From: Desulfonema limicola
Lineage (GTDB): Bacteria; Desulfobacterota; Desulfobacteria; Desulfobacterales; DYRC01
Direction of reading: 5' to 3'
Assembly (NCBI GenBank): GCA_020718925.1
Contig: DYRC01000004.1
Coordinates: 2,235 to 39,807 of the forward strand
Length of the DNA stretch: 37,573 bases
The notes beneath the pieces were generated by a model. That model had not been told where the DNA came from, made no database searches, and was given only the letters and a program-made list of their open reading frames with translations. This document shows positions 1-29,574 of this stretch, one piece after another. Made by a program: the position numbers and the translations under genes. Each line of letters starts with the position of its first letter. Position 1 is the stretch's first letter.

Positions 1-1051
1 TTTCAATTTCGGCAAATTTTCTTTGAATCAGGCTTGATAATTCATTCTCTGTTTCTTTTCGGCGATCAGCTATATCCTGATGAACCTTTCTTAAAAATTC
101 AGCCTGCCAATTGTCATCATGGTCTCTGCCTTCCTTTTTTTCATAATCAATATTGCTCACAAAGTCAGCAAATTTTTTTAAAACAGTAGTCAGATTACCT
201 AATTCATTATCAATTTGTCTGAAGCGGTCAGCAAATCCTTTTTTCATGTTTTCAATATCAGAGGCTTTTGCCCGCTCGTTCGCTTCATGGTTGTTTTTTT
301 CATCTTCAACCGAGGTCTCAACCCGGACAAATCTCTCATGGACAGTCCCTATCCATTCATTTTCTGCTTTTTTCTGATCTTCAACAGCGGTTTCAAAACG
401 TGTTTTCAAATTTTCAATATCTGATCTTGCATAAGTCTCAAGTTCTACAAGTTTTTTTTGAATAAGAAGCAACTCGCTTTCTATCTTCTGATGTTTTGTC
501 AGAGTTTCGGCATTCTTCTTTTTTAAGTCTTCGATATGGTTTTCAACTTCGGTAAATCGCTTCTGAATAAGACGTAATTCGCTGTCTGTTTCCTTCTGGC
601 GCTGAGTGATCTCCTGATGTTTTGTCTGAATTTCGGTGTTCTTTTTTCGTTCTCCCCCGATATGGCTTTCAATTTCAGCAAGCTTTTTTTGAATAAGGCG
701 CAGTTCGTTCTCTGTTTCCTTTTGCTGATTGGCAATATCCTGAGTTTTTGTCAGCGTTTCGGTGTTTTTCTTTCGTTCTCCCCCGATATAGCCCTCAACT
801 TCGGCAAATTTTTTTCGGATAAGATACATTTCGTTTTCAACATCTTTTTGAGAAACAGATGTTTTTTGCGGTTTTTTCAGATTTTTTTTTGCAATTTCAA
901 GCTTTTGTTTGTATTTTGCCAGAATATTGTCAGGCAACGGCAGCAGCATGGTATTGAGTGTCGGATCATTTTCAATGTCCCACGCACAATGACGACAAAA
1001 GGACGGTATGGGTTCTGAAAGTTCGGATTCGCAAACAGGACATCGTTTCAT
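1..1051 (-). CDS. Zinc-ribbon plus coiled-coil repeat protein, partial (C-terminus runs off the window)
   Basis: Minus-strand frame is open from ATG at 1049-1051 to the window edge. GGAGG (rc of 1063-1067) lies 11 nt upstream. N-terminus is MKRCPVCESEL..FCRHCAW (CxxC..CxxC). The rest is K/E/Q-rich repeats such as LRLIQKKLAEIESHIGGERKKNTE. It is absent from the ORF track because no stop falls in the window. Confidence 0.6.
   Translation of the reverse strand, partial: MKRCPVCESELSEPIPSFCRHCAWDIENDPTLNTMLLPLPDNILAKYKQKLEIAKKNLKKPQKTSVSQKDVENEMYLIRKKFAEVEGYIGGERKKNTETLTKTQDIANQQKETENELRLIQKKLAEIESHIGGERKKNTEIQTKHQEITQRQKETDSELRLIQKRFTEVENHIEDLKKKNAETLTKHQKIESELLLIQKKLVELETYARSDIENLKTRFETAVEDQKKAENEWIGTVHERFVRVETSVEDEKNNHEANERAKASDIENMKKGFADRFRQIDNELGNLTTVLKKFADFVSNIDYEKKEGRDHDDNWQAEFLRKVHQDIADRRKETENELSSLIQRKFAEIE
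434..850 (-). repeat. In-frame tandem coding repeats (126-bp and 105-bp units) inside the coiled-coil gene
   Basis: TTCTCCCCCGATAT recurs at about 650 and 776. The block GG(T/C)TTTCAA(C/T)TTC(G/A)G..TTCTGAATAAG recurs at about 539, 664 and 790 (period 125-126). A related shorter unit starts at about 434, and a related word occurs at 1-33. Confidence 0.7.
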
Positions 1052-1135
1052 TATGAAAAATTCCTCCGATTATAACAGGCGTTTTACAAGCAGATAAAGA
1101 GCGTAGCCTACGCCCCATGATACTGAAAAGATAAT

Positions 1136-1234
1136 TCAGGGCATACAAAATCCCGTACCTTTGAGTTTGATCATCAGCAGTGCTGCCGCCGCCGATCCGC
1201 CGATAATACCTGTCCCTATGGCAATAGCTTCCAT
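1136..1234 (-). CDS. Possible 32-aa hydrophobic small protein (MEAIAIGTGIIGGSAAAALLMIKLKGTGFCMP)
   Basis: ATG at 1232-1234 (rc) has GGAGA 6-7 nt upstream. It starts 10 nt after the stop of the upstream GTPase-like gene. One predicted TM-like segment. Too short for the ORF track. Confidence 0.3.
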   Translation of the reverse strand: MEAIAIGTGIIGGSAAAALLMIKLKGTGFCMP

Positions 1235-1243
1235 ATTTATCTC

Positions 1244-2563
1244 CTATTTCTTTTCCATGCGCCGAAGCAGAATATCTTTTAAAAACGGCTCACTGTGATC
1301 CTGATATTCATATCGTACCCTGAGCGTGGGTTTATCAACAGACACCAAACCGGGCAGAAAAATCGGCGTTGCAAACAATACCAAATCGCAATCTGCCTGA
1401 TCAAGCGTTTTCTGCAAATCCTGAATCTGCTGTTCACCATATCCCATAGCCGGAACAACATTTCCGATATGCGGATATTTCTGATACACATCTTTAAGCG
1501 ATCCTGCGGCATAAGGTCTGGGATCGATAATTTCCGCCGCTTCATATTGACGGGCTGCAATCACACCTGCCCCGAATGCCATTCCGCCGTGCGTGAGCGT
1601 GGGTCCGTCTTCCACCACCACCACCCGCTTCCCTTTGATCAGTTCGGGCTGGCTGACGATGAGCGAAGATTCGGCAAAAACAATCTCTGCTTTTTTGGCA
1701 TACGTTTCGATATTTTTGCGGACAATCTCAATATTTTCAGGACTTGCAGAATCCACTTTATTGATAATAGCAATGTCTGCCATGAGCATGTTGGTTTCAC
1801 CCGGATAATACAGCCGCTCATGCCCCGCACGATGCGGATCAAACAACACAATATGCAGATCCGAAAAATAAAACGGCGTGTCATTATTGCCCCCGTCCCA
1901 GATAATCACATCAGCCTCAGATTCGGCGGCTTTGAGAATCTGCCCGTAATCCACGCCCGCATAAACCACAATGCCCCGCTCCACGATTGGCTCGTATTCT
2001 TCCCGCTCCTCAATGGTGCAGTGATGCGTTTCAAAATCCTGATAAGACGAAAATCGCTGAACAATTTGTTGTTTCAAATCTCCGTAAGGCATGGGATGGC
2101 GCACCACCACCACCTTCCTGCCCTGCGCTTGCAGAATCTCTGCTACTTTCCGGGTGGTGGGAGATTTTCCGCATCCGGTTCGGACCGCGCATACAGATAT
2201 GACCGGCTTTGAGGATTTGAGCATGGTATAGGTTGCGCCGATCAGTGTGAAATCTGCGCCATGCGCCATGACCAATGCGGCTTTGTGCATCACTTCGATA
2301 TGAGAAATATCGCTGTATGAAAAAGCGACCAGATCAATTTTATGCAGGCGGATCAATTCCGCCAATTCTTCTTCCGGATAAACAGGAATGCCATCAGGAT
2401 ATAATTGTCCTGATAATTCAGGCGGATATAAGCGTCCTTCGATATTGGGAATTTGTGCGGCAGTAAATGCGATGACTTTATATCGCGGATTATCCCTGAA
2501 ATAAATATTGAAATTGTGAAAATCCCTGCCTGCCGCGCCCATGATGATAACTTTCTCAATCAT
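1244..2563 (-). CDS. COG2403-type predicted GTPase / cyclic 2,3-diphosphoglycerate synthetase-like protein
   Basis: ORF 1244..2647. I prefer the start MIEKVIIMGAAGRDFHNFN at 2563, which has GGAGAGAG upstream. P-loop-like VRTGCGKSPTT; NKVD motif (IINKVD). Overall layout is typical of this family. Confidence 0.8.
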   Translation of the reverse strand: MIEKVIIMGAAGRDFHNFNIYFRDNPRYKVIAFTAAQIPNIEGRLYPPELSGQLYPDGIPVYPEEELAELIRLHKIDLVAFSYSDISHIEVMHKAALVMAHGADFTLIGATYTMLKSSKPVISVCAVRTGCGKSPTTRKVAEILQAQGRKVVVVRHPMPYGDLKQQIVQRFSSYQDFETHHCTIEEREEYEPIVERGIVVYAGVDYGQILKAAESEADVIIWDGGNNDTPFYFSDLHIVLFDPHRAGHERLYYPGETNMLMADIAIINKVDSASPENIEIVRKNIETYAKKAEIVFAESSLIVSQPELIKGKRVVVVEDGPTLTHGGMAFGAGVIAARQYEAAEIIDPRPYAAGSLKDVYQKYPHIGNVVPAMGYGEQQIQDLQKTLDQADCDLVLFATPIFLPGLVSVDKPTLRVRYEYQDHSEPFLKDILLRRMEKK

Positions 2564-2709
2564 AAAAAGCTCTCTCCTTCTTCCGAATCGCTTTTCTGTT
2601 TTACAGATTTCGGAATATGTTTTATATTGTGTTTGCAGAAATATCAATAAAAAAACTGTCTTGATTCATAATCCTGAATCATGCTATCGTTCAATAAGGT
2701 TATACAAAA

Positions 2710-2826
2710 GCACCCCTCCCCCCGGCCCCTCCCCTGAAAGGAGAGGGGAGCAGTGATGATGTCTCCCCCTTCCCTTTCAGGGAAGGGGGACGGGGGGTTA
2801 GGTGGGTTTGAAAGCGATTTGGTATT
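2710..2826 (+). repeat. C/G-rich double-hairpin repeat, copy 1 (variant A)
   Basis: GCACCCCTCCCC..CCCCTCCCCTGAAAGGAGAGGGG..CCCCTTCCCTTTCAGGGAAGGGG..GGGGTTAGGTGGGTTTGAAAGCGATTTGGTAT. Nearly identical to 7944-8058. Lies between divergent genes, 22 nt upstream of the cbiK RBS. Confidence 0.85.
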
Positions 2827-2860
2827 AATATATCTTTTCAGACAGATAGGGAGGCTGATC

Positions 2861-3616
2861 ATGAATATTCCGATTGTGATGGCAGCATTCGGCACAGGTA
2901 CCCAAGCAAAAAAAACTTACGATATCATTGACCGGATTGCATCAGAAAAATTTTCGGGACATGAACTTGTATGGGCGTATACCTCCCGCACGGTCAAGCG
3001 GCGGTTTCAGGACTTGAAATCTCCCCGGCAGGTACTGAATGAGTTGAAAGACAAGGGGCATACATGGGCGGTGGTGCAGTCATTGCACGTTGTCTGCGGA
3101 CATGAATTTCACCGGCTGATGGAAGAAATCAGCGACGTTGACATCAGGCTGTCCATCGGGCTTCCGCTGTTGATCAGCCCTGAAGATTATGAGATGGTCA
3201 TCAGTGTGGTAACGCCGCTTCTGCCTTCGGACATGACACAGGAAGCCGCTGTTCTGATCGGACATGGCACGGATCATCCGTCATGGACCGCATATCCGGC
3301 ATTGGCATATCTGCTGCGGGAACGATTCGGGCAGAAAATTTATCTGGGGCTGGTGGAAGAAGGCTATCCTACGCGTGAATCGGTTATCGCATCGGTAAAA
3401 GCAGCCGGATTCACGCGCGTTAAGCTGATTCCCTTTATGCTGGTGGCGGGAATTCATTTTCAGCAAGACCTGATGGGACAGGAAGATTCATGGAAAACCG
3501 CCTTTGAAGCCCAAGGCATATCGGTGTCCGCAGACAACAGCGGGCTTGGCTGCTATGATGATATTATTCAGATTTACTGCCAGCATATCCGCGATGCCTT
3601 AAATGTGATTCCCTGA
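2861..3616 (+). CDS. cbiK: Sirohydrochlorin cobaltochelatase/ferrochelatase, CbiK type
   Basis: ATG at 2861 with AGGGAGG at 2848-2854. MNIPIVMAAFGT...VVQSLHVVCGHEF...IGHGTDHP...IPFMLVAGIHF matches the anaerobic CbiK layout. The 36-aa extension in the track (from 2753) is a translation of the repeat. Confidence 0.85.
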   Translation: MNIPIVMAAFGTGTQAKKTYDIIDRIASEKFSGHELVWAYTSRTVKRRFQDLKSPRQVLNELKDKGHTWAVVQSLHVVCGHEFHRLMEEISDVDIRLSIGLPLLISPEDYEMVISVVTPLLPSDMTQEAAVLIGHGTDHPSWTAYPALAYLLRERFGQKIYLGLVEEGYPTRESVIASVKAAGFTRVKLIPFMLVAGIHFQQDLMGQEDSWKTAFEAQGISVSADNSGLGCYDDIIQIYCQHIRDALNVIP

Positions 3617-3617
3617 T

Positions 3618-5306
3618 ATGACAGAACAAGACGACATAGCAGATAGCAAAGAAATTGCGGCCGCTGAAAAAATCATCTCCGCGCTGCTGATAGCGGTTAA
3701 AAATTCGGCACTTTATCCCGAACACCATGAGAGTTATCTTAAATCCGTTGAAAATCTCAGATTGCTGTTTGCCGAATTTTTCAAAGTTTGTGAGTATCTG
3801 AGATGGTATGTGGAAAAAGACCATCTGATATTCAAAGGTCAGGTCATCCGGCATGATGGGGAAAACCTCTCATCTGTCTTGTTTCGGGATGGCATCCGGT
3901 GGATAGAAATCAGAAAAGGCATCGAATCTGATGAAATCACGGGCTTTCTGAAAATTCTCAAAGACTACCGGGTGTTGAGCGATAACGCGGACGGCGATCT
4001 GGCAACCGCATTATGGGAGGCAAATTTTTCTCATATTCTGTATGAGGCAGAAGACGCTTTTCGGAATGCTGACCCGATTGATGCGGCGATGCTGATGGGG
4101 ATGCCAGAGGGTATGCCTGAAACAACGCCGGACAAAGAAAACCATGATCCCGAATACGTCCATGCGCCGCAAGAAGCCCCGACTCATGCGCCCCTGCCAT
4201 TATCCGCTGATCTGTGGCAGCTCAGTTCACAGGAAACGCTTGAACTTCAGCGAATGGTCATCAAAGAGGAAAATGACGTCAAAACCAAAGATGTGCTGGA
4301 TATACTGCTGATTATCCTTAAAGAACAGCATAGCGAACAGGAATTTTCAAACATTCTTGACTTTATCAAAGACGAATTTCGGCAAAGCCTGATGCAGTGC
4401 GAGTTTGAATTGGCGCATCTGATGCTCGGACGGATGCAGGAATTTAAGCGGGTCTGCCAATCTGAAAGTCAGTCAAAAGCGTCATTGCTTCAGAATTTTT
4501 TTACTGCGGTATCAGGCGTCGAAGTCTTGGGGGTGCTTTATAAAGTTCGTCCTGCGCTGGAGATTGCCAATCCCGAAAGGATCAGAGCATTTCGTAAAAT
4601 GTTCAATTTTTTACGCCCCGAAGCAACTATATCGCTCGCGCCCATGGTTGCTGTCATCAAAAATCCGCAACTGCGCCGTGCGGTCATGGAAATTATCGGG
4701 GCTTTGGCAAGCAAGGACATCCGCCCTTTGGAAAAACTTCTGGAAAGTTCGGAAGAAGAGCTGGTTCATCGTCTGGTGTTTATCATGGGAAAGCTCAAAG
4801 GTAAAAAAATCGGTGAGTTATTGCTGAAAATGATCGGGCATCCTTCGGAAGCTGTTCGCAGAGAAGCTTTAAATTCGCTGATGTCAGGAGACAATGAGTC
4901 TGTGAGCCTGCTGTTTACACTGCTTGACAATGACTCTGAAATGATTCGTGAGATGGTTTCAGAACATCTGTATCGGAAAAAATACCCGGATATTGAGGAG
5001 CAGATGTTGGATTATCTTGAACATCGCCGCTTCAGATATAAAGAGCAGAAGCATATTTCAGCCTGCTATAAGATATTGGGGCGAAGCGGTTCTTCAAAAT
5101 CCCTTGTTTTTTTGGAAAAAGTATTGTTTGATAAACCCTGGGCGTCTTTACTCGGCATTGAAAACGCTTATGAACGGGATGGCGCGGCAGCGGCATTAGC
5201 CGAAATGGGAACAGAAGAAGCCAACAGCCTTCTTGCCAGAGCTTCCCGAAATCCGTTCCCTGCTGTGCGGCGGGCATATAAAAAAGCAACTGAGGACATC
5301 GTATGA
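3618..5306 (+). CDS. HEAT-repeat protein whose N-terminal module is paralogous to that of the downstream HD-GYP protein
   Basis: Starts 1 nt after the cbiK stop. The C-terminal half has HEAT/PBS-lyase-like repeats (HPSEAVRREALNSL.., NDSEMIREMV.., NPFPAVRRAYKKA). Confidence 0.7.
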   Translation: MTEQDDIADSKEIAAAEKIISALLIAVKNSALYPEHHESYLKSVENLRLLFAEFFKVCEYLRWYVEKDHLIFKGQVIRHDGENLSSVLFRDGIRWIEIRKGIESDEITGFLKILKDYRVLSDNADGDLATALWEANFSHILYEAEDAFRNADPIDAAMLMGMPEGMPETTPDKENHDPEYVHAPQEAPTHAPLPLSADLWQLSSQETLELQRMVIKEENDVKTKDVLDILLIILKEQHSEQEFSNILDFIKDEFRQSLMQCEFELAHLMLGRMQEFKRVCQSESQSKASLLQNFFTAVSGVEVLGVLYKVRPALEIANPERIRAFRKMFNFLRPEATISLAPMVAVIKNPQLRRAVMEIIGALASKDIRPLEKLLESSEEELVHRLVFIMGKLKGKKIGELLLKMIGHPSEAVRREALNSLMSGDNESVSLLFTLLDNDSEMIREMVSEHLYRKKYPDIEEQMLDYLEHRRFRYKEQKHISACYKILGRSGSSKSLVFLEKVLFDKPWASLLGIENAYERDGAAAALAEMGTEEANSLLARASRNPFPAVRRAYKKATEDIV

Positions 5307-6742
5307 CAGATGAAAACATCAGCCTGAATACGGACGATCAGCTTCCCAGCCGGGAGCAGTTTGTCAGAGCATTTTACAAAATTCTTCAATCTCTGAGAAT
5401 TCATCGTGAAAACAACCAATTGCTCACAGAATCGGTTCATGATTTTATACGTCTGCTGCACCGGATAGGAGATGAGCAAGGTTCGCTGACGGTTCGCTTT
5501 ATTCGGGGAAGGCTGTATCTTCAGGAAGAAAGACTGCTCTATCGCCGGGAAACCGTCAATCTTTTTGACAATCTGATGAGCTATTTTGAAAAACGGGGAC
5601 TTCAGGGCATACGGTTTTATCCGCATATTGAAAATAAAGATATGACGGAAGTTTTAGTGTTGGCAGCGATTTTAAATCAGGCGGAACAAAAAAAAGAGCC
5701 GCTGGCTTGGCTGAGTCATGAAATTCAGGAAGAAGGATTTTCATGGGTTGAAATTATCAAATCAGACGCCAAATCTTTTGAATCCCGCAGGCACAAGAGT
5801 GAAAAAGCTCTTAAAACTTATGCTTACGCCTTGGAATCTGTTCAGGAGATTACACAGAAATTATCTGCCGGATCACGAGTCGGCATCGGGAGAACACTGC
5901 GGATCACTCAGAATATGGTGGACCTGATGATGGAAGATGAGCCGCTGTTTCTGGCACTCAGCACCATCAGGATGTATGATGACTATACATACCGGCATTC
6001 CCTCAACGTGGCAATTCTTTCAATGTGTATCGGCAAATACATAGGACTTTCCCGAAGATCGCTGGAACAACTCGGACTGTGCGGACTGCTGCATGATCTG
6101 GGGAAAATTATGGTTCCCAAGCATATTCTGAGCAAGCCCGGAAAACTGACGCAGGAAGAATTTGAAGAAATGAAAAAGCATGTATTGAACAGCGTCCGCC
6201 AGATTGTAAAAATTCACGGTTCATCAGAGCGCAAGGCAAAACTGCTGCTTCCTCCGTTTGAACATCATCTCAGATACGATTTGTCAGGATACCCCCAGAC
6301 GCATCGGCATGAACCGCTCACTCTTTTCGGGCGAATTATTGCGATTGCCGATGTATATGATGCCACGACCTCTCCCAGAGTGTATCGCCGCAACGCCATG
6401 CCGCCGGATCAGGCATTGGGCATGATGTCTGCCCACGCCGGAACGCATTTTGATCCGATTCTGCTCAAAGTGTTTATCAATATGGTCGGCGTTTATCCCA
6501 TCGGAACGCTGTTGGAATTGGACAGCAAAGAACTTGCCATCGTGGTTCGTGCCGCAGATAATCCGGATAAAACAAGACCCACCGTCATGCTGCTGTCTTC
6601 TGATGAAAACGGGGGATTTAAAAAGGGAAAAATTGCGGATTTGAACGAAAAAGACCCGCGCACCGGCGATCATAAGAGAAATATCGTCAGAAGCTTAGTT
6701 CCTTCGGATTACGCGATTCAACCTGCGGCATTTCTTCTGTGA
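5303..6742 (+). CDS. HD-GYP domain c-di-GMP phosphodiesterase
   Basis: ATGA start/stop overlap with the upstream gene; GAGGA RBS. Motifs: HSLNVA..; GLLHDLGK; FEHHLRYDLSGYPQ (HD..HHExxDGxGYP pattern); IADVYDA. Confidence 0.85.
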   Translation: MTDENISLNTDDQLPSREQFVRAFYKILQSLRIHRENNQLLTESVHDFIRLLHRIGDEQGSLTVRFIRGRLYLQEERLLYRRETVNLFDNLMSYFEKRGLQGIRFYPHIENKDMTEVLVLAAILNQAEQKKEPLAWLSHEIQEEGFSWVEIIKSDAKSFESRRHKSEKALKTYAYALESVQEITQKLSAGSRVGIGRTLRITQNMVDLMMEDEPLFLALSTIRMYDDYTYRHSLNVAILSMCIGKYIGLSRRSLEQLGLCGLLHDLGKIMVPKHILSKPGKLTQEEFEEMKKHVLNSVRQIVKIHGSSERKAKLLLPPFEHHLRYDLSGYPQTHRHEPLTLFGRIIAIADVYDATTSPRVYRRNAMPPDQALGMMSAHAGTHFDPILLKVFINMVGVYPIGTLLELDSKELAIVVRAADNPDKTRPTVMLLSSDENGGFKKGKIADLNEKDPRTGDHKRNIVRSLVPSDYAIQPAAFLL

Positions 6743-6745
6743 AGT

Positions 6746-7093
6746 TTAAAGGATTTCCCGTTCTCTGAGAAACGACATGGCTTGCTGGGCAATACTCGTA
6801 ACTTCGGTCAGCGCCTTGGTCAGATGAAAAACAGCATCCTGCGCCGCGCCGGAATGGAGCATGACCAATGCCGTATCCATAGAACGCTGTGCGTCTGCCC
6901 AACGATCATTCGGCGCCATACGCCGGGCAACAAGAAATTCAGTGGCAGTCATTTCCGCAAACAGAGTGATTATTTTTTCACCCCCCGGCAGGTCTTCCGG
7001 CTGAAGTGATAGGACAGCATTACTGACCCAGATCAGACCGGATTTGATTTTTTCGCTTTGAGAAAACGCAATCACAGCTTCCCGAACATTCAT
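6746..7093 (-). CDS. Hypothetical protein (115 aa)
   Basis: Clean ORF with AAGGA upstream of the ATG. No motif recognised. Convergent with the HD-GYP gene (3-nt gap). Confidence 0.5.
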   Translation of the reverse strand: MNVREAVIAFSQSEKIKSGLIWVSNAVLSLQPEDLPGGEKIITLFAEMTATEFLVARRMAPNDRWADAQRSMDTALVMLHSGAAQDAVFHLTKALTEVTSIAQQAMSFLREREIL

Positions 7094-8517: not shown

Positions 8518-8604
8518 TTATCAAAACCTGTTGATGCGTATGATTGATGCGCCTTTAAAAAAGCGCAATTTAGAAACCCTGAATTTCATATATCATCCTG
8601 ATTT
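8482..8604 (-). ncRNA. Candidate ~120-nt small RNA (orphan promoter-terminator unit)
   Basis: TTGACA (rc 8635-8640), 18-nt spacer, TATTTT (rc 8611-8616), preceded by an A-tract. The terminator at 8482-8517 follows. No credible ORF lies between them (only an 8-codon ATG..TAA). Confidence 0.25.
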
Positions 8605-8697
8605 TTTAAAAAAATACTATGAATCAAGAAGGGTTGTCAAGATTTTTTTTGTTCATATCGGCTTGAATGGAAGGCATTTACTTTGATTAATGTCAAA

Positions 8698-8721
8698 AGC
8701 CCCGAAATGAATTTCAGGGCT
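8698..8721 (-). terminator. Weak hairpin 60 nt downstream of the helicase stop
   Basis: AGCCCCGAA/TTCAGGGCT stem with one mismatch. Only a short T-run follows on the minus strand. Confidence 0.3.
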
Positions 8722-8780
8722 TGAATTTCAGACCGTCTGACGCCTCAAATTAATAGGCGGGCGGTTTATCGCGCATGATC

Positions 8781-10949: not shown

Positions 10950-12244
10950 AAACCGGAGAACCGCATATTCTGCTGATTAATCCGTGGATTCATGATTTTG
11001 CCGCGTATGATTTCTGGGCAAAACCTATCGGATTGCTGTATCTGGCGGCTATGTTGGAGCAGCACGGTGTTGACGTCAGTTTTATCAATTGCCTGAATCG
11101 TTTTCATCCCAAAGCGCGTCCGTCTGATCCTCATGCCCGGTACGGACGGGGACATTATCTGAAAACCCGAATCCCCAAACCCCAAGGATTAGATGATATT
11201 CCCCGATATTTTTCGCGCTACGGCATCAGAGAAGAATGGTTCAGGGAAGATTTGCAGGCTCTGCCGACACCGGATCTGATTCTTGTAACGTCTCTGATGA
11301 CATACTGGTATCCGGGAGTTCGGGATGTCATAAGCATTTTGCGCGAATATTTTCCGAATACGCCGGTCATTCTGGGCGGAATTTATGCCACGCTCTGCAC
11401 GGATCACGCCCGAAAATATTGCGGCGCGGATAAAGTCATTACCGGAGCCGGGGAAAAGCAGCTATTTGATGTTGTGGCAGAATACTGCGACTTTTCCATA
11501 ACGCCCCAGTATGACCCGGATGATTTGAATTGCCTTCCCTATCCGGCATTTCATCTTGAAAACGTCATATCATATATTCCGATTCTGACCTCAAGAGGCT
11601 GCCCGTTTTCCTGCGCGTATTGTGCTTCGCGGATATTGGAGCCGAAGCTCCGGCGCAGAAATCCTGAAAACGTGGCAGAGGAAATTCTCTTCTGGCATAA
11701 AAAACACGGCGTGAAGAATTTTGCATTTTATGACGATGCGCTGCTTACAGACCCGGAGCATCACGCAATTCCCCTGCTGGAAAAGATTATCGCTTCCGAC
11801 ATCAAAGTCTTTTTTCATACGCCGAATGCGCTGCATATCCGGGAAATATCGCCATACATTGCAAAGCTGATGTTTGACGCGGGATTTGAAACCATCCGGC
11901 TTGGGCTTGAAACCACCGAATTTGAAGACAGAAAAGAATTGGATAGAAAAGTAACCGAATCTCAATTCAGACAGGCGGTTTCATATCTTAAAGCCGCCGG
12001 TTTCAGAAAAGAGCAGATCGGCGCGTATCTGCTGACCGGTCTGCCGGGGCAGTCATTGGAATCTGTGGAAAGGTCTGTCAGAACCGTCAGAGAAAGCGGT
12101 ATCGAACCTGCGTTGGCGCAATATACGCCGATTCCTCATACCGCATTATGGAAAAAAGCTGTGGCGTGTTCGCGCTATGATCTTGAAGCTGATCCGATTT
12201 TTACCAATAATTCAATATTGCCATGCAGTTCTGTCATATCCTGA
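10946..12244 (+). CDS. Class B (B12-binding-domain-like) radical SAM protein
   Basis: ATGA overlap with the upstream gene. N-terminal Rossmann-like ILLINPW..PIGLLYLAAML; CxxxCxxC cluster motif SRGCPFSCAYCAS. Confidence 0.85.
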   Translation: MKTGEPHILLINPWIHDFAAYDFWAKPIGLLYLAAMLEQHGVDVSFINCLNRFHPKARPSDPHARYGRGHYLKTRIPKPQGLDDIPRYFSRYGIREEWFREDLQALPTPDLILVTSLMTYWYPGVRDVISILREYFPNTPVILGGIYATLCTDHARKYCGADKVITGAGEKQLFDVVAEYCDFSITPQYDPDDLNCLPYPAFHLENVISYIPILTSRGCPFSCAYCASRILEPKLRRRNPENVAEEILFWHKKHGVKNFAFYDDALLTDPEHHAIPLLEKIIASDIKVFFHTPNALHIREISPYIAKLMFDAGFETIRLGLETTEFEDRKELDRKVTESQFRQAVSYLKAAGFRKEQIGAYLLTGLPGQSLESVERSVRTVRESGIEPALAQYTPIPHTALWKKAVACSRYDLEADPIFTNNSILPCSSVIS

Positions 12245-12262
12245 AATCCCGATTCAGACAAT
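12238..12262 (+). repeat. Partial copy of the small-repeat right arm (ATCCTGAAATCCCGATTCAGACAAT)
   Basis: Compare ATCCTTCAATCCTGATTCAGACAAT at 8457-8481. The 12-mer GATTCAGACAAT is identical. This copy overlaps the radical SAM stop codon. Confidence 0.5.
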
Positions 12263-12422
12263 CAGTTAAGGGTAAGCACAGGGGCTTACCCCCATTGCCA
12301 TTAAGTTAAGACAGGAATCAGAAATTAAGGTCAATAACTATTTTCCTGCAAGCTTTTGAAAAATACATTATACTTATTTGATTAGATTTGCTTACACGTA
12401 GTTGTTTTCATAAAAACAGTTC

Positions 12423-12451
12423 TTGCATTTTTATAACGGCGGATATATAAA
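12423..12451 (+). promoter_or_regulatory. Predicted sigma70-type promoter for the island's first operon
   Basis: TTGCAT (12423-12428), 17-nt spacer, TATAAA (12446-12451). Confidence 0.35.
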
Positions 12452-12470
12452 CTGAACTATTTGATGAAGG

Positions 12471-12511
12471 TTTTCCGGCTATCATGTCAAAATCACATGA
12501 TAGCCGGAAAA
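12471..12511. promoter_or_regulatory. Perfect 17-bp inverted repeat (operator or 5'-UTR hairpin)
   Basis: TTTTCCGGCTATCATGT-caaaatc-ACATGATAGCCGGAAAA. It sits between the predicted promoter and the ATG at 12568. No downstream T-run on either strand, so it is not a canonical terminator. Confidence 0.5.
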
Positions 12512-12567
12512 AAACTGTTCAATCACTGGTTATGCCTCTTGGTCAATAATGCGCTTTAGGAAACACT

Positions 12568-13110
12568 ATGACAAAAGATAAGTTTGAAGAATTCATAAGC
12601 AAACAGAAGAAGAAATCGTCTTCTATTGAGATTGATTGGGATATACAACGATCTGAATGGCTTCAGCATTTAGACCTGTTCTATGAGTCAATTGAACTCT
12701 TTCTCAAACCATACACAGAGAACAAGACAATCGAACTCTCTTTTGGAACAAAGAAAATTATTGAGGAGTACATCGGCGAGTACGAAGCAAAAACGGCTCA
12801 AATTACGATTGGAATCAACAGGATAAAACTTGATCCTATTGGCACAAATCTGATCGGAGCCAAAGGACGAGTTGATTTAATTGGACCGAACGGGAAGATA
12901 AAGTTTGTTCTTGTGAACGAGTCTGCTTCAGCACCGAAAATATCCGGAAGAGTTTGGATTCAAGGAGAAGAACCGCCTACAAATGAAGAAGAGCAGCCTA
13001 AAGTTATTTCGTGGGTTTGGCGCATAGCAACCCCACCGCCAAAAATCAAGTATTTTCCTCTTGAGAAAGAATCCTTCCTTGACGCATTAATGGAAGTTTC
13101 AAATGGCTGA
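12568..13110 (+). CDS. Hypothetical 180-aa protein, upstream partner of the HEPN-like protein
   Basis: AGGAAA RBS 6 nt upstream. AT-rich: 35% GC in a 60-nt spot count at 12601-12660, versus 57% at 12001-12060. No TM segment and no motif recognised. Confidence 0.65.
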   Translation: MTKDKFEEFISKQKKKSSSIEIDWDIQRSEWLQHLDLFYESIELFLKPYTENKTIELSFGTKKIIEEYIGEYEAKTAQITIGINRIKLDPIGTNLIGAKGRVDLIGPNGKIKFVLVNESASAPKISGRVWIQGEEPPTNEEEQPKVISWVWRIATPPPKIKYFPLEKESFLDALMEVSNG

Positions 13111-13636
13111 AAAAGTCACCTTCTCAGGGCAGCATCTTGACTTATCCGAGATAACCGAGCATTACACAGATGTTGAACTGTCACTTCGACAACTATTTTC
13201 GTCTGCACTGGATAATGAAGAGCGATTTGCTGGGTATAGCCCGACTGAGGTTGCAGAAGAACTCGAATATAGACTAGCAGAAGAAGGAAATCTGGTAGCT
13301 CTTTCCATTTTGGCAGCGATAGAGGCGGCATTTAGGGTTGATTATCTTCAAAGAGTCTACGCAAAGAAGAAAGACCCTCTTTCAAGAGCTTTCCGCGAGC
13401 TACATGAGATCAAAGGATCTAGAGCATCGCTTGAAGACGAGATATTCAATACTTGGCTAAAATACACCAATGTACAGCCCCAGCTTATAGGCAATCTACG
13501 AGGCGCCTTCAAGTTTCGTCACTGGCTTGCTCATGGTCGCTACTGGAAACCTAAGCTTGGTCAGCGCTATGACTATCATGGCGTTTACACTTTAGCTGAA
13601 GGTGTATTCAGATCGCTGCCTTTGCTGACAAATTAG
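13103..13636 (+). CDS. HEPN-like putative RNase (Rx4H motif)
   Basis: 8-nt overlap (ATGGCTGA) with the upstream gene. All-helical-looking sequence with KFR139HWLAH144GRYW (nt 13517-13534), matching the HEPN R-x4-H catalytic signature. Size (177 aa) is typical of single-domain HEPN toxins. Confidence 0.55.
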   Translation: MAEKVTFSGQHLDLSEITEHYTDVELSLRQLFSSALDNEERFAGYSPTEVAEELEYRLAEEGNLVALSILAAIEAAFRVDYLQRVYAKKKDPLSRAFRELHEIKGSRASLEDEIFNTWLKYTNVQPQLIGNLRGAFKFRHWLAHGRYWKPKLGQRYDYHGVYTLAEGVFRSLPLLTN

Positions 13637-13705
13637 GCATAACCCATCATTCAACACGGACTGGCGCGATAAAGCCTCGCCAGCCGGTTAATTCAGACGT
13701 TAGGA
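13637..13705 (+). repeat. attC-like imperfect palindrome immediately after the HEPN-like gene
   Basis: GCATAAC...CGGACTGGCG-cgataaagcct-CGCCAGCCGG...GTTAGGA. The ends approximate RYYYAAC and GTTRRRY. The stem has bulged bases. 69 nt long. Confidence 0.3.
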
Positions 13706-13772
13706 TTTTAATAAATTCTGCTGACAACTTAACATACTGTTGCACCTGACAAAAACAGGTGAAGTAATATAG

Positions 13773-14237
13773 ATGGAATCGGTATATATTGAGACATCCG
13801 TTCTGAGCTATCTTACGGCACGACCGAGCCGGAATCTTATAGCGGCTGCAAGACAGAGAATTACAACAGAATGGTGGGATAAGCAGAACTATCGGATTTT
13901 CACCTCGAATGTTGTGATTGCCGAATCAGGTCAGGGTGATACGGAATGTTCACAGTTGAGACTGGGCATAATAAAGGATATTCCGAGACTTGCAATCACG
14001 CCTGAATGTCATCGGTTAGCCGAAAAACTCATTGCCGACTGTGTGCTGCCTGAAAATGCTCAGGATGACGCATTACATATTGCCGTATCAAGCTGTCATT
14101 ATACAGATTTTCTTCTGACTTGGAATTGCAGGCATCTGGCAAATGCACATATCATCCCGAAAATAAGGAAACTTATTGAGTCGGAAGGATATAAGTTTTC
14201 ACAGATATGCACACCGGAGGAGCTGATCGGAGAATAA
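13773..14237 (+). CDS. PIN-domain toxin (VapC-like)
   Basis: Acidic residues in PIN positions: YIETSVL (N-terminal), ..AESGQGD.., QDDALHIAV, LLTWNCRHLAN. 154 aa. Confidence 0.75.
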   Translation: MESVYIETSVLSYLTARPSRNLIAAARQRITTEWWDKQNYRIFTSNVVIAESGQGDTECSQLRLGIIKDIPRLAITPECHRLAEKLIADCVLPENAQDDALHIAVSSCHYTDFLLTWNCRHLANAHIIPKIRKLIESEGYKFSQICTPEELIGE

Positions 14238-14238
14238 T

Positions 14239-14457
14239 ATGGAAAACGTTATCAGAGATGAAATAATCGAAGAATTATGGCAGATAAAGGACAGGTTCTC
14301 ATTTTCCTGCAACAGAAATATCGGAGAGCTTATAAAAAAAATGAACGCCATAGCGGAAGAGTTGAATTTTGCAGAAAAAAAAATGACCGGGCAGTCTGAC
14401 CGGGTCGTTGTACCTGACGGAGTTGGATGCCAGCAGGTGAACTTGCCGTTAGGATAA
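14239..14457 (+). CDS. Small partner protein of the PIN toxin (putative antitoxin, downstream position)
   Basis: Starts 1 nt after the PIN stop. N-terminal RDEIIEELWQIKDRFSFSCNRNIGELIKKMN looks like the small helical partners often found beside this PIN subtype. The C-terminal tail may be non-native. Confidence 0.45.
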   Translation: MENVIRDEIIEELWQIKDRFSFSCNRNIGELIKKMNAIAEELNFAEKKMTGQSDRVVVPDGVGCQQVNLPLG

Positions 14458-14479
14458 GTGATACGGTATTTCACGGAAT

Positions 14480-14529
14480 TCCTAACCCTCAGTTGCAGCC
14501 GATTACAACGGCTGAACATTGTGTTATAA
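14480..14529 (+). repeat. Second attC-like imperfect palindrome
   Basis: TCCTAAC-CCTCAGTTGCAGCCG-attacaa-CGGCTGAACATTGT-GTTATAA, with a bulged G in the stem. An extra GTTAGGA sits at 14448-14454, at the stop codon of the small gene. Confidence 0.3.
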
Positions 14530-14690
14530 TTCCGATGTCCGATTCCGCGCTCTCGACAAACTGCCCGCCCCCCACGCCTTCTCAGACTCATTTATAATCA
14601 TCAGACATCATTGTTTTTCAGACAATTTCTTAACTTAATGACATTGGGGCTTACCCTACATATTATGCCGGAAAGTATATGATTGGGTAT

Positions 14691-19666: not shown

Positions 19667-20514
19667 ACAGCCGGATATGTGTCGGAATTATCGGCGGAAA
19701 AGGCGCAATGGGTCGCTGGTTTGAGCATTTTTTTACTCAGAGCGGGCATAAGGTTCTGATTTCGGATTTGCAGACGATGTTCACCCCGAAACTTCTCGCA
19801 AGGATTTGTGATATTGTTATTATCAGCGTTCCTTTGGATATTGCGCCTGAAATTGCAAAAGCCATCGGTCCCCGAATGAGCGGGAATCAATTATTGACCG
19901 ACATCTGCTCGCTCAAAGAAGATATTCTAAATGCCATGATGAATCATACAAAAGCCGAGGTGGTCGGAACTCATCCGCTTTTCGGTCCTTTTGTCGAATC
20001 TTTTCATGGGCAGAATATGGTGATTTGTCCGGGCAGGGGTGAAAGATGGCTCAGTTGGCTCAAAGATGAATTTGAAAAAAGCGGCGCAAACATCATCAGC
20101 ACGGACGCTGCGACACATGACAGAAATATGGCTATTTTTCAAGGGCTTACGCATATACTCAGCGTCAGTATCGGCAGAATGTTTCAAAAGATAAACATGC
20201 GCCCTGCTGAAGCAATTTCTCAATCCACGCCGGTATTCAGGGTTCATACGGATCTGGTGGGGCGGCTGTTTGCTCAGGATTTGGGGCTTTATGAGCGGCT
20301 TATCGGTCAGAATAAATATGTGGGCGAAGTTCTGAATATCTTTTTGTCTGCGTTGAATGAAAGCCGGGAAAATCTGCTTTCGGGTGAAATTGGAAAAAGC
20401 AGTGAATATTTGGAACAAATCCGCTCTTTTCTCGGTGATTTCTGCCAAAAAGGGCTTGAAGAAAGCAATGAGTTTCTGAATATATTTTATTCCAAAATGA
20501 AAGGATCGGCATAA
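19663..20514 (+). CDS. tyrA: Prephenate dehydrogenase
   Basis: ATGA overlap with aroC. NAD fold ICVGIIGGKGAMGRWF; ..VVGTHPLFGP..; HDRNMAIFQGLTH. Confidence 0.85.
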   Translation: MNSRICVGIIGGKGAMGRWFEHFFTQSGHKVLISDLQTMFTPKLLARICDIVIISVPLDIAPEIAKAIGPRMSGNQLLTDICSLKEDILNAMMNHTKAEVVGTHPLFGPFVESFHGQNMVICPGRGERWLSWLKDEFEKSGANIISTDAATHDRNMAIFQGLTHILSVSIGRMFQKINMRPAEAISQSTPVFRVHTDLVGRLFAQDLGLYERLIGQNKYVGEVLNIFLSALNESRENLLSGEIGKSSEYLEQIRSFLGDFCQKGLEESNEFLNIFYSKMKGSA

Positions 20515-21770
20515 TGGATAACAAACTCAATCTTTTTGCCTTAACCTTAAAGAACTATAAAAATATAGTTGCTGATGGGATCGGATTAAATAATCTGAAT
20601 GTCATTATCGGACCAAATGGTTCGGGGAAAAGTAATTTTATCGGTGTTCTTCGGTTTTTAAAAGATTGTCTGATTTCTACACCTGATAAAAGTGGGGGGA
20701 TTACCAGTTTTGAAGAAGCTATTGAAAAGCTCGGCGGTAAAAGGATATTAGACAAAACGGTTGCATCGCATGAATCTGTTAATTTAGGTTTTATCTTCAA
20801 ACTTTCTGAAGGAAAAATTTTATTTTTTGATTTGGATATTTGGGAAGATATTATATCTGAGGAGAGTCTTTATTCACCGGGTATTGCAGGAACAGACAAG
20901 TTCTGTTTTTATAAAGTTAATATTGATTTTGATAAAGGATGCGATGTATCAGTTTATAATGATTCTACTCAAAAGGAAAGTCATATTGAAACATTATCAG
21001 ATATTCCTAATAATCAACTAATGCTAAGTATGATTCCTGAACTGTTAGAGTCAAGTAAGTTTTCCCCTGAAAATACACCTGTTTACAAAGTGCGGCGAAA
21101 AATTATTGATTCGGTATCAGGATGGCGGTTTTATAATGCCAATGATATGAATGTAACTGCTATCCGTGTTTCAGAACCGAAAATCGGTCCCGGCGATATG
21201 TTTCTTGAGCCTTCAGGAGAAAATCTGCCTTTGGTCTTGGATAATCTGATTCAGAAAGATTTTGAATTTGAAGAAAGAATCAATAATGCCATGAAGCAGA
21301 TTTTGCCTCAGACAAGAAAAATCAGACCGATACGTTTAGGGCGATTAGCGTTGACGGTGGAATGGTATTTTGACGGCATGAAAGAGCCGTTTTACTTAGA
21401 TGAAATGTCAGACGGCACGGTGAGAATGTTATGCTGGGCAGTTATTCTGCATTCTCCTATTCCGCCTTCTCTGCTGGTTATTGACGAGCCGGAAATGGGT
21501 ATTCATCCGTCATGGTTGCCGATTTTGGCGGAATGGATAAAGACCGCTTCTGAAAGAACGCAGATTATTGTCAGCACACACAGCCCTGATTTGCTGGATC
21601 ATTTTACGGACAGAACAGAAGACGTGATTTGTTTTCGCTTTGACGGAAAAAATCATTTTACACCTGAGCATTTGTCAAGGGAAAAACTTTCGGCAATGTT
21701 TAATGAAGGATGGGAGTTGGGAGATTTATATCGTGTCGGTGATCCGGGAGTCGGAGGCTGGCCATGGTAG
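20514..21770 (+). CDS. ABC/SMC-type AAA ATPase (AAA_15/AAA_21-like), candidate defence ATPase
   Basis: TAATG overlap with the tyrA stop. Walker A GPNGSGKSN; ABC-signature-like MSDGTVRML; Walker B LLVIDEPEMGIHP; H-loop VSTHSPDLL. AT-rich: 30% GC in a spot count at 20521-20580, versus 48% at 19681-19740. Confidence 0.85.
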   Translation: MDNKLNLFALTLKNYKNIVADGIGLNNLNVIIGPNGSGKSNFIGVLRFLKDCLISTPDKSGGITSFEEAIEKLGGKRILDKTVASHESVNLGFIFKLSEGKILFFDLDIWEDIISEESLYSPGIAGTDKFCFYKVNIDFDKGCDVSVYNDSTQKESHIETLSDIPNNQLMLSMIPELLESSKFSPENTPVYKVRRKIIDSVSGWRFYNANDMNVTAIRVSEPKIGPGDMFLEPSGENLPLVLDNLIQKDFEFEERINNAMKQILPQTRKIRPIRLGRLALTVEWYFDGMKEPFYLDEMSDGTVRMLCWAVILHSPIPPSLLVIDEPEMGIHPSWLPILAEWIKTASERTQIIVSTHSPDLLDHFTDRTEDVICFRFDGKNHFTPEHLSREKLSAMFNEGWELGDLYRVGDPGVGGWPW

Positions 21771-22459
21771 TTTGGGTATTTGCAGGCGGCGGAGAATCTG
21801 AGATAAAAGGGCTTATTCTGTTTTTCCGAAAAAGTTTCTCTGATTGTCAGTTTGAGCGAAAGACTCCGATCAATAATAAAAAAGCCCCTAATCCCAAAAA
21901 AGCACTCGGCAAGACCGGAAAAAGTCTTGCCGACCAGATCAGTTGGCAATTGAATAACTCTCTGAGAGATAATGAAAAATGTGATTTAATCCTTGTCATT
22001 GACGATTTGGATTGCCGAGATGTAGAGCAGCAAAACCAACTATTTCTGAAAGCGATCAACATCGTGAAAGAAGCATCTGAGATAAAACAGATTATCGCCT
22101 TTGCCGCGCCGGAATTAGAATCATGGATTGTTGCAGATTGGCAGAATACTTTTGCAAAACATATTGATTTCAGAGGATTCCATCAAGGGATGCGGCATTG
22201 GCTGAGTACAAAAAATTTTCCTTTTGATGCGCCTGAATCCTTCAGCGAATATGATTCAGACAAAGATAGCTGCAAAGAAAAACTTTCCGAACTGATTATC
22301 GAAGCGGTATCTGAAAAAGCTCAGAAAAGATATTCAAAAGCAAGTCATACGCCGTTTCTGCTTCAACAAGTCAATCCTGAAAATGTTGTGGAAAAATGCC
22401 CTTTATTCAGAGAATTGTATCTGACTTTCAATAATTTATTCAAATCAGAGAGTTTATGA
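21764..22459 (+). CDS. Toprim-like protein resembling the DUF4276/RloB/DUF4435 group
   Basis: 7-nt overlap with the ATPase gene. N-terminal VFAGGGESEIKG (Toprim-type Glu); DLILVIDDLDCRD (DxD); AAPELESWIVADW (E.W motif). The assignment rests on the motif pattern only. Confidence 0.6.
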   Translation: MVVWVFAGGGESEIKGLILFFRKSFSDCQFERKTPINNKKAPNPKKALGKTGKSLADQISWQLNNSLRDNEKCDLILVIDDLDCRDVEQQNQLFLKAINIVKEASEIKQIIAFAAPELESWIVADWQNTFAKHIDFRGFHQGMRHWLSTKNFPFDAPESFSEYDSDKDSCKEKLSELIIEAVSEKAQKRYSKASHTPFLLQQVNPENVVEKCPLFRELYLTFNNLFKSESL

Positions 22460-29163: not shown

Positions 29164-29574
29164 TTACCTGCTTTTCAAGTCTATCCATATCGAAAGGACA
29201 GACTTCAGATTCTTAAAATGCGGATCGGTTGAAACAAATCGCTCACAAGCATGATGTTTTGCAATCGCTAAATGAACCGAATCCATTGCCTTCAAATTCT
29301 CAGTCTGAGAAAATTTTAAAGCATCTTTGAAAACATTAGGAAAACTTTTCAGAATTTTGGTTTGTTCAAACAACCTGTCATAAATTCTGACCAAGCGTTC
29401 ATTATTATCTTTGTGAGGTTTTGACAATACTTCAAGCACCACGGCATCGGAAGCACACAATAGCCATCCTGCATTCATAAGTTCCTGAAGACAGATATTA
29501 ACGTTTTTACGATAGTTTGGCAATCCCTCAATACGTGCTATCCAAACAGAAGAGTCAACATAAGCTAATTTCAT
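29164..29574 (-). CDS. vapC: PIN-domain toxin VapC
   Basis: MKLAYVDSSVWI..(Asp)...LEV...MDSVHLAIA...FVSTD. ATGA overlap with the upstream antitoxin gene. Confidence 0.8.
   Translation of the reverse strand: MKLAYVDSSVWIARIEGLPNYRKNVNICLQELMNAGWLLCASDAVVLEVLSKPHKDNNERLVRIYDRLFEQTKILKSFPNVFKDALKFSQTENLKAMDSVHLAIAKHHACERFVSTDPHFKNLKSVLSIWIDLKSR

Follow-up and report, generated by a model that had tools for sequence, protein, structure and literature searches.

A co-inherited gene pair on an integron-type cassette of Desulfonema limicola encodes a predicted HEPN-like protein and a partner from an apparently undescribed family

HEPN ribonucleases (RNases) are the effectors of many toxin–antitoxin, abortive-infection and CRISPR-associated systems. 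To our knowledge, only a few ways of restraining them have been described, namely AMPylation mediated by MNT proteins, binding of the RnlB type, and the sensing of cyclic oligoadenylate. In HepT, the catalytic motif continues into a tyrosine with the spacing Rx4HxY, and in the RnlA system the antitoxin gene lies downstream of the toxin gene. We analyzed a stretch of 37,573 nucleotides (nt) from Desulfonema limicola (assembly GCA_020718925.1, contig DYRC01000004.1, positions 2,235 to 39,807 of the forward strand), referred to below as the window. Two overlapping genes in it, called A and B here, appear to form an HEPN-based two-gene conflict module with an apparently undescribed partner family and fold. 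The effector class and the general logic of such a module are familiar. What sets it apart is that, throughout a large family missing from current catalogues, an invariant HEPN-type motif goes together with a partner lacking a recognizable fold, and that the overlap of the two genes has been kept across phyla.

Gene pair and predicted proteins

The features of the pair, in window coordinates, are the following.

12568–13110, forward strand: gene A, 180 amino acids (aa), member of an uncharacterized family, proposed neutralizer or sensor partner.
13103–13636, forward strand: gene B, 177 aa, all-alpha and HEPN-like, proposed RNase effector or toxin.
13103–13110, forward strand: A/B overlap ATGGCTGA, 8 nt, where the last codons of A overlap the start of B.
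13517–13543, forward strand: codons in B for the Rx4H motif and the invariant tyrosine, R139-H-W-L-A-H144-G-R-Y147.

An initial annotation, made from the letters of the window alone, described a translationally coupled pair of open reading frames (ORFs) that share 8 nt. Both ORFs and the overlap ATGGCTGA are present as it described them. The overlap implies translational coupling, and a Shine-Dalgarno-like sequence for B (GGAAG) lies within the codons of A for M-E-V. We surveyed one genome per species in GTDB and found 313 B-encoding loci among 185,579 species genomes; pairing was counted in the best 80 of these 313. In 78 of the 80, the gene immediately 5' of B is A. One of the two exceptions is cut by a contig end, and the other (L072) has a shortened B. 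The same 8-nt overlap, with the pattern RTGNNTRR, recurs in 73 of 76 pairs from many phyla, with GGAAG or GGAGG ahead of it in the final codons of A. Moreover, the distance matrices of the two proteins are correlated (r = 0.79), a value that none of 500 permutations reached. Comparison with the 90%-identical copy at locus L081 gave dN/dS ratios of 0.12 for A and 0.19 for B, which indicates that both genes are under purifying selection. Judged by its sequence, A–B is a strictly co-inherited, translationally coupled two-gene unit, and the co-occurrence across genomes that the initial annotation proposed to tabulate is found. No conserved third gene was found beside A–B among the surveyed loci, and comparison of the neighbors across loci rules one out as part of the module.

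Two further records touch on the pairing. At L072 (490–900), no A lies upstream and B lacks its first 40 residues. A database protein of 297 aa, P0302, is an apparent in-frame fusion of A-family residues 1–180 to the N-terminal part of a B-family protein. It is cut by a contig end, and a natural fusion and a sequencing frameshift are both possible.

HEPN domains are built on a core of four helices, in which a helical insert often separates helices 2 and 3. They carry an Rx4-6H motif where core helix 3 ends and the loop to helix 4 starts, and a conserved acidic residue in helix 2 (PMC3710099). The AlphaFold2 model of B (pLDDT 86.7) has six helices, at residues 14–35, 47–87, a hairpin of 92–107 and 110–121, 126–143 and 158–171. 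In the model, R139 to A143 end helix 126–143 and H144 opens the loop to the last helix, 158–171, while the helical hairpin is inserted between the long helix 47–87 and the motif helix. The invariant E74 and D80 are predicted to lie in this long second helix. The predicted structure of B therefore shows the motif, the motif position, the insert and the helix-2 acidic residue described for HEPN domains (PMC3710099).

The motif itself, KFRHWLAHGRYW, is well conserved. H144 is invariant and R139 is present in 39 of 40 homologues, and both residues are kept in all 36 members of a second homologue set that includes a copy from a Klebsiella plasmid. Nearly the whole segment RHWLAHGRYW is conserved among B homologues, and the plasmid copy keeps it at 32% overall identity. 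Database names point in the same direction: the UniRef name of homologue P0030, which is 54% identical to B, is ‘RiboL-PSP-HEPN domain-containing protein’, and the JGI name of another homologue is ‘YutE/DUF86’. Searches of B against NCBIfam, PADLOC-DB 2.0.0 and PHROGs returned nothing significant. Among the Foldseek matches to PDB, the best non-trivial ones were the HepT chains 5yep_C and 6m6w_G (probability 0.41–0.44, TM 0.33–0.43), and the integron HEPN structure 3jrt came at rank 15 (probability 0.06). A phage ‘HEPN domain-containing protein’ was at rank 3 in BFVD (probability 0.13). Two DUF86/HepT candidates were present among the fetched loci. The initial annotation had called B HEPN-like from its motif and had pointed to structure prediction as a check. 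The motif, its conservation, its placement and the predicted all-helical bundle bear this out. The Pfam clan models do not, and the Foldseek matches to HepT or HEPN proteins are weak, with probabilities of at most 0.44. We regard B as likely to be HEPN-like.

The AlphaFold2 model of A (pLDDT 86.2) has two N-terminal helices, seven beta strands and a C-terminal helix. This agrees with the helical N-terminus, beta-rich C-terminus and acidic linker read earlier from the sequence, the linker corresponding to a variable, acidic, low-confidence loop at about residues 118–148. The invariant residues of A (E66, G70, Y72, P90, T93, G100, R101, D103, G109, W151, T155 and P158) include two clusters, EExIGxY and the glycine-rich hairpin PIGTNLIGAKGRVD, and a further patch, WKIATPPP. 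Sequence searches of A against Pfam, NCBIfam, PADLOC, PHROGs and PDB gave no match, with no nucleotidyltransferase family among the Pfam and NCBIfam results, and a Foldseek search of its model against PDB found nothing at E <= 0.001. The top Foldseek matches were non-significant and consisted of PH domains and small beta barrels. The PH-domain matches (TM 0.15–0.23) offer a hint of topology only. The initial annotation could not assign A to any family, and these searches agree: on its model, A belongs to an uncharacterized family whose fold has no recognizable relative.

The A family is large. Detectable relatives numbered 359 for B and 140 for A, similar in length and nearly all unnamed, and an exhaustive profile search with A recovered 2,057 clusters at 50% identity with E <= 1e-3, of which 371 had E <= 1e-30. 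Nearly all members stand alone at about 180 aa, and no distant annotated relative of A was found among the best 150 matches of this search.

Integron-type cassette and recombination platform

The array that carries the pair comprises the following features.

12431–12535, forward strand: attC0, an attC-like site upstream of the A–B cassette, with R'' TTATAAC (12431–12437) and R' GTTATGC (12529–12535).
12530–13699, forward strand: cassette 1, beginning with the TT of the upstream R', ending with the G of its own R' and holding only A and B.
13637–13705, forward strand: attC1, the attC of cassette 1, 69 nt, with R'' GCATAAC and R' GTTAGGA.
13700–14523, forward strand: cassette 2, with a 154-aa PIN-like ORF (13773–14237) and a 72-aa ORF (14239–14457).
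14480–14529, forward strand: attC2, the attC of cassette 2, 50 nt, with R'' TCCTAAC and R' GTTATAA.
12253–12293, no strand assigned: left copy of a direct repeat of about 40 nt, TTCAGACAAT...TTAA...GGGGCTTACCC, with its right copy at 14617–14656.

As its boundaries and sites read, the A–B module here takes the form of an integron-type gene cassette. It is the first of two cassettes in an attC array that has a radical-SAM gene on one side and an ABC-transporter gene on the other. The first 8 nt of cassette 1, GTTATGCC, are the exact complement (8/8) of GGCATAAC just 3' of the B stop codon, a match to be expected of any unit circularizing at G|TT. The start of cassette 2, GTTAGGA, is likewise the exact complement (7/7) of TCCTAAC (14480–14486) downstream of its ORFs. 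The attC consensus is RYYYAAC for R'' and GTTRRRY for R', with conserved AAC and GTT (PMC5027507). The boxes of attC1 and attC2 have one mismatch each to this degenerate consensus, with AAC and GTT intact. The R'' of attC1 begins one base after the B stop codon, and the site has 9-nt unpaired spacers on each side and an inner stem of AAC-CGG-CTGGCG. On its bottom strand, CGCCAG-T-CCG-T-GTT, two extrahelical T bases stand 4 nt apart. These features agree with the attC definitions of PMC5027507, although the fold z-scores of attC1 are modest (-1.7 and -2.0). The fold of attC2 scored better, with z = -3.2 for the top strand and -4.3 for the bottom strand, no shuffle as good, and one extrahelical C; its L-box, CAGTTGCAGC...GCTGAAC, resembles the attC upstream of A–B in L032. 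For attC0, where the 17-bp palindrome described below would be the terminal stem, the R'' box TTATAAC is the least certain assignment.

A rule-based attC scan of the whole 37.5-kb window reported three sites, two of which are attC1 and attC2. No tyrosine recombinase was found among the called genes covering about 2–37 kb of the window. The array is therefore an integrase-less attC cluster (CALIN) and not a complete integron. Its GC content is 35–44%, compared with 46–50% in the flanks. This cassette structure was absent from the initial annotation, which described an inverted-repeat-bounded island. A 29-nt inverted repeat (12283–12311 / 14628–14656, 83% complementary) does bracket the region, but the region is better described as an attC array. 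The direct repeats of about 40 nt overlap this inverted repeat, bracket the whole array and may mark its insertion site. The left copy, which is also present in the related contig L088, includes the hairpin GGGTAAGC/GCTTACCC right after the radical-SAM stop codon.

Two related loci define the limits of the cassette. At L081, a 90.5% nucleotide match covers only 12529–13701 and the surroundings are unrelated. Homology starts at GTTATGCC (12529) and ends at ...ACGTT (13701), and the 63 nt 3' of B recur on both sides of the pair there, in copies that are 92% and about 85% identical. The second locus, L088 (JFJP01023046.1), is a sister contig that is 93% identical through the radical-SAM gene, up to 12504. 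It shares window positions 12321–12504, after which come the identical ...ATCACTG|GTTA junction and another cassette. This cassette (4244–6382), at the same G|TT junction, is PARIS-like and encodes an AriA-like ATPase, broken by a frameshift into 277 + 93 aa, together with an AriB/DUF4435-like protein of 295 aa. The slot is thus also used by a known defense system. No empty site was recovered: L088 is a cassette replacement, and an exact look-up of the radical-SAM neighbor returned no record.

Some other copies have the same kind of ends. GCATAAC and GTTATGC flank A–B in a cyanobacterium (L010), in a metagenome-assembled genome (MAG) of Bacteroidales (L032), and in L039 and L006, and in L032 textbook attC sites lie on both sides of the pair. 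However, an attC-like site right after B was found by the rule-based scan in only 4 of 77 loci, compared with about 1.5% at control positions. We therefore reject the idea that A–B is generally integron-borne; the cassette state belongs to a sub-lineage that includes this window. A Xer/dif-type module was also rejected. Sites of the dif type are 28 bp long, whereas the flanks here are structured 50–100-nt sites with AAC and GTT ends.

The 5' leader of cassette 1 before the ATG of A is 38 nt long, with AGGA at 12558–12561, and measures 31–56 nt in other cassette copies. With only 38 nt before A, the cassette has no promoter of its own and transcription must start upstream. The initial annotation had credited the pair with its own promoter at 12423–12451 (TTGCAT-17-TATAAA, 8 of 12 consensus positions). 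A promoter scan of the region did not report this site and returned a total count equal to the shuffle expectation. The promoter-like site overlaps the 5' end of attC0 and lies upstream of the cassette boundary at 12529/12530, in sequence common to L088, so it cannot be counted as part of the pair.

The palindrome that the initial annotation placed in the leader is exact, with two perfect 17-bp arms (12471–12487 / 12495–12511), and its DNA folds with z = -6.8, a value that no shuffle equaled. It lies upstream of the cassette and is not a feature of the family. In L088, 140 nt are inserted at window position 12319 and 31 nt of the palindrome are missing; this deletion and the comparison of 76 loci given below rule out a conserved operator. 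An intrinsic terminator is ruled out because the scan found none and no T-run follows the stem on either strand. Both the promoter-like site and the palindrome belong to the recombination platform rather than to the A–B module. Rfam searches across the region found no RNA family.

Cassette 2 had been read as a PIN toxin pair. The match of its 154-aa ORF is sub-threshold (Pfam PIN E = 0.01, 16.9 bits, cut-off 23.6), and this reading is not confirmed. The ORF has IETS in place of the usual D-containing start, the 72-aa ORF has no match, and the order, with the putative toxin first, is unusual for VapBC. A conventional VapBC-like pair is present elsewhere in the window, at about 29164–29795 on the reverse strand, where a 74-aa ORF is followed by a 136-aa ORF with a clear Pfam PIN match. 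It adjoins a DUF2809 gene, and a Uma2-family endonuclease gene is nearby (gene table of L171). In addition, an AAA_21 ATPase (418 aa) and a DUF4276 protein (231 aa) at 20514–22459 on the forward strand match the PADLOC candidate system HEC-01 (HEC-01A 1e-50, HEC-01B 4.5e-6). They lie between genes for prephenate dehydrogenase and LpxK, and the ATPase is truncated to 190 aa in one same-organism assembly (L171).

The L081 contig has a varied neighborhood. A type IV CRISPR-Cas locus (Csf1, Csf3, Csf5, Cas1, Cas2 and a DinG-like helicase) spans positions 1–7000, 2.6 kb from its A–B copy, and contains a repeat array with a 62-nt period at 5800–6880. A 372-aa protein encoded 1.3 kb downstream of the pair (11825–12943) has a weak tyrosine-recombinase match (Pfam Phage_integrase E = 0.002).

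Distribution, proposed mechanism and alternatives

The hosts of the B loci include Proteobacteria, Acidobacteriota, Latescibacterota, Gemmatimonadota, Cyanobacteria, Spirochaetes, Chlorobium, Desulfobacterota, Bacteroidales and others. A–B, with the identical 8-nt overlap, is also found on 18 plasmids of Klebsiella or Raoultella; WP_044525166.1 and WP_040173808.1 are Klebsiella plasmid alleles, the latter of B. Among them are ColE1-type (ColRNAI, Rop-encoding) replicons of 3.7–4.7 kb, such as L086 (NZ_CP114776.1, 4655 bp), in which A–B is among very few genes. In the smallest plasmid records the A homologue straddles the record origin and is unannotated, and on IncFIB plasmids of 135–177 kb the same pair is found near ccdAB and relE-type modules. 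Elsewhere the pair mostly stands alone, inserted among housekeeping genes. This distribution, which is rare, patchy, singly scattered, and cassette- and plasmid-borne, is typical of addiction or toxin–antitoxin modules and unlike that of defense-island residents.

At five loci the pair is flanked by repeats of other kinds, some of them duplicated coding segments. Direct duplications flank A–B in a Thiotrichaceae MAG (L069, 7319–7493 / 8581–8765) and in a Pseudomonadales MAG (L076, 7224–7336 / 8657–8775). They are 110–170 nt long and coding-like, one of them includes the start of a DegT-like gene, and they suggest another, target-duplicating insertion mechanism.

We interpret A–B, with a confidence only a little above even, as a mobile HEPN toxin with a novel protein neutralizer or sensor, of the toxin-antidote or abortive-infection kind. 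B would be a metal-independent endoribonuclease of the HEPN superfamily. To judge from the solved HEPN enzymes, it would act as a dimer, with an active site formed by R139 and H144 and assisted by the invariant E74 or D80 of the long second helix. A would be translated first from the shared mRNA and B by coupled re-initiation, giving matched amounts of the two proteins. A would then bind B directly and hold it inactive. Loss of A together with the element, or its displacement by a phage cue, would release B, which would then cleave RNA of the cell or of the phage and stop growth. The unit would spread as a cassette, on plasmids and by other insertions.

Several observations speak for a mobile HEPN toxin with its neutralizer or sensor. 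We count here the pairing in 78 of 80 loci and the shared overlap in 73 of 76, the correlated distances, the dN/dS ratios and the apparent fusion P0302. The genomic context points the same way, through the L081 copy beside a type IV CRISPR-Cas locus, the PARIS-like pair at the same junction and the ColE1-type plasmids, as do the loss of 40 residues from B at the sole A-less locus (L072) and the GC dip of the array. Integron cassettes have been reported to be rich in toxin–antitoxin and defense genes (bioRxiv 10.1101/2024.07.02.601686). As in type II toxin–antitoxin systems, two small, adjacent, co-directional genes are inherited together, with the proposed neutralizer upstream.

Other results weigh against this interpretation. 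At E <= 1, the HEPN-clan models of Pfam, which the initial annotation had named as a check, matched neither B nor any of its 40 homologues. PDB sequence searches with profiles of full-length B and of the motif region returned no HEPN entry, and the Foldseek matches of B in PDB and BFVD were all non-significant, with none at E <= 0.001. Membership of B in the HEPN group is therefore unproven by profile or fold. PADLOC models did not match A, B or the Klebsiella copies. The DNA-binding, autoregulating antitoxin of type II systems has no counterpart here. A has no DNA-binding domain (no helix-turn-helix, ribbon-helix-helix or AbrB-type match in Pfam or NCBIfam), and upstream palindromes are not conserved, the best inverted repeat averaging 5.49 nt in 76 loci and 5.22 nt in shuffled sequences. 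Classical type II autoregulation is accordingly not indicated. A is also as large as B and well conserved, unlike a typical small, labile antitoxin. In L042 (7531–8005), A is split over two frames and B is intact; this locus comes from a long-read MAG and may reflect an assembly error, or B may not be strongly toxic.

The surroundings of the pair count on the same side. The 150 immediate neighbors sampled from 76 genomes, with no distant-gene control, are mostly housekeeping genes, including those for rotamases, enolase-family enzymes, a tRNA synthetase and ribosomal protein S2. Defense genes among them are few (PtuA, SduA, HEC-06 and AAA_21). Residence in defense islands, which the initial annotation had suggested looking for, is not general for this pair, and since there was no distant-gene control we claim no enrichment figure. 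The pair is also nearly absent from phage records. A search of 50,697 phage records gave no match, and only three IMG/VR contigs carry A, all three together with B. On these counts we reject a phage origin.

It is possible, although we think it unlikely, that A–B is instead a two-subunit defense effector, with A as a required sensor or adaptor that switches B on during infection. The beta domain of A would recognize a phage protein, a nucleic acid or a small molecule, and neither protein would be toxic or addictive alone. The size and strong conservation of A would suit this role, and its glycine-rich invariant loop PIGTNLIGAKGRVD resembles a binding or catalytic site more than an antitoxin tail. 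The lack of a DNA-binding domain and of a conserved operator is also what such a system would lead us to expect. A promoterless cassette would resemble the defense cassettes that are driven from an outside promoter, integron cassettes often encode one- or two-gene defense systems, and PARIS replaces A–B at the same junction in L088. However, the neighbors from 76 genomes, sampled with no distant-gene control, show no defense-island enrichment. An antidote would account at least equally well for the presence of the pair on small ColE1-type plasmids and for the position of A upstream of B, and the only A-less locus also has a truncated B.

A role outside genetic conflict seems improbable. A–B would then serve as an accessory complex that processes or binds RNA, or B would be a helical protein without catalytic activity whose R/H motif is structural, and the pair would be only passively mobile. 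No significant match links B to a characterized RNase, most copies lie among housekeeping genes, and L042 may keep B without an intact A. However, 313 loci among so many species genomes is a patchy distribution, the pair travels on cassettes and plasmids and is swapped with a defense system at the same site, the residues that make HEPN enzymes catalytic are invariant in B, and no conserved housekeeping partner gene is found nearby.

Least probable of all, A could be an enzymatic regulator that covalently modifies B, for example on Tyr147, in the manner of type VII HepT–MntA: the invariant Y147 stands three residues after H144, MNT-associated HEPN toxins have a conserved tyrosine after the motif that was proposed as the nucleotidylation site (PMC3710099), and the invariant polar residues E66, T93, R101 and D103 of A could form an active site, but searches of Pfam and NCBIfam gave A no signature of a nucleotidyltransferase or of any other enzyme, and Foldseek gave it no structural match to any enzyme. 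The argument is purely one of analogy.

If A does prove to be a new neutralizer or sensor, it would add a mechanism of HEPN control and a new entry to the catalogues of defense and toxin–antitoxin systems. We hold a bolder version to be doubtful, in which A would combine a new fold with a new, perhaps enzymatic or ligand-sensing control of HEPN RNases that acts on the invariant Rx4HxxY segment of B, and the pair would represent a new toxin–antitoxin type, or A–B would be a minimal phage-sensing sensor-effector. Either would be a widespread, uncatalogued defense or addiction family with more than 2,000 clusters in at least ten phyla, borne on integron cassettes and plasmids. The array has an interest of its own as an environmental, integrase-less attC array in which the same junction carries either a two-gene HEPN module or a PARIS-like system, and it fits recent reports of integron cassettes that store defense and addiction genes. 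Because copies reside on 4–5-kb Klebsiella ColE1-type plasmids, the hypothesis is easy to test in E. coli.

Comparison with described systems

We compared A–B with the systems that it resembles most. A search of full-text literature with the RefSeq accession numbers of four homologues, two of A and two of B, found no mention of them.

The vehicle and the site are shared with several systems whose proteins differ from A and B. The integron cassette HEPN protein (PDB 3jrt, Vpc_cass2) is also a small HEPN protein on an integron gene cassette. It comes from single-gene Vibrio cassettes that have no A-type partner, the B profile did not match it at E <= 10, and its Foldseek probability was the 0.06 given above. 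Integron-borne defense and toxin–antitoxin cassettes such as Esos and Taranis also share the vehicle with A–B. They too lack an A-type partner, and no homology of A–B to them or to the 3jrt family was detectable. For PARIS (AriA/AriB), the likeness is purely positional, a PARIS-like pair being found at the same recombination junction in L088, while its proteins, an ABC-type ATPase and a DUF4435 protein, are unrelated.

Proteins of the RiboL-PSP-HEPN and AbiD–AbiF branch resemble B as standalone HEPN domains with a motif of the R-x-x-x-A-H-G type (Anantharaman et al. 2013, PMC3710099). The Pfam models nevertheless miss B and its 40 homologues even at E = 1. Members of the RiboL-PSP-HEPN group are reported either to be fused to L-PSP or to share an operon with ParB (PMC3710099), with no A-type partner.

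RnlA–RnlB and LsoA–LsoB offer a functional analogy. In these systems an HEPN RNase is restrained by a cognate protein, and the antitoxin has no DNA-binding domain. A role in phage defense and carriage on plasmids are described for them (PMC3710099; bioRxiv 10.1101/2021.03.22.436500). In contrast to B, RnlA is a much larger, multidomain protein, and no sequence or fold similarity of these systems to A or B was detected.

HepT–MntA is likewise a dyad with the neutralizer gene 5' of a small HEPN toxin, in which the Rx4-6H motif is followed by a conserved tyrosine. Its HepT chains 5yep_C and 6m6w_G were the best non-trivial Foldseek matches for B, but at a probability of at most 0.44 a relationship is not established. 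The differences lie in both proteins. A is no nucleotidyltransferase, having neither the MNT motif nor a Pfam match, and is built instead from helices and a beta domain. B is longer (177 aa), carries a helical hairpin insert and has the tyrosine spacing Rx4HxxY, not Rx4HxY. By analogy, A–B would work like HepT–MntA or RnlA–RnlB, yet it fails the defining partner test for both.

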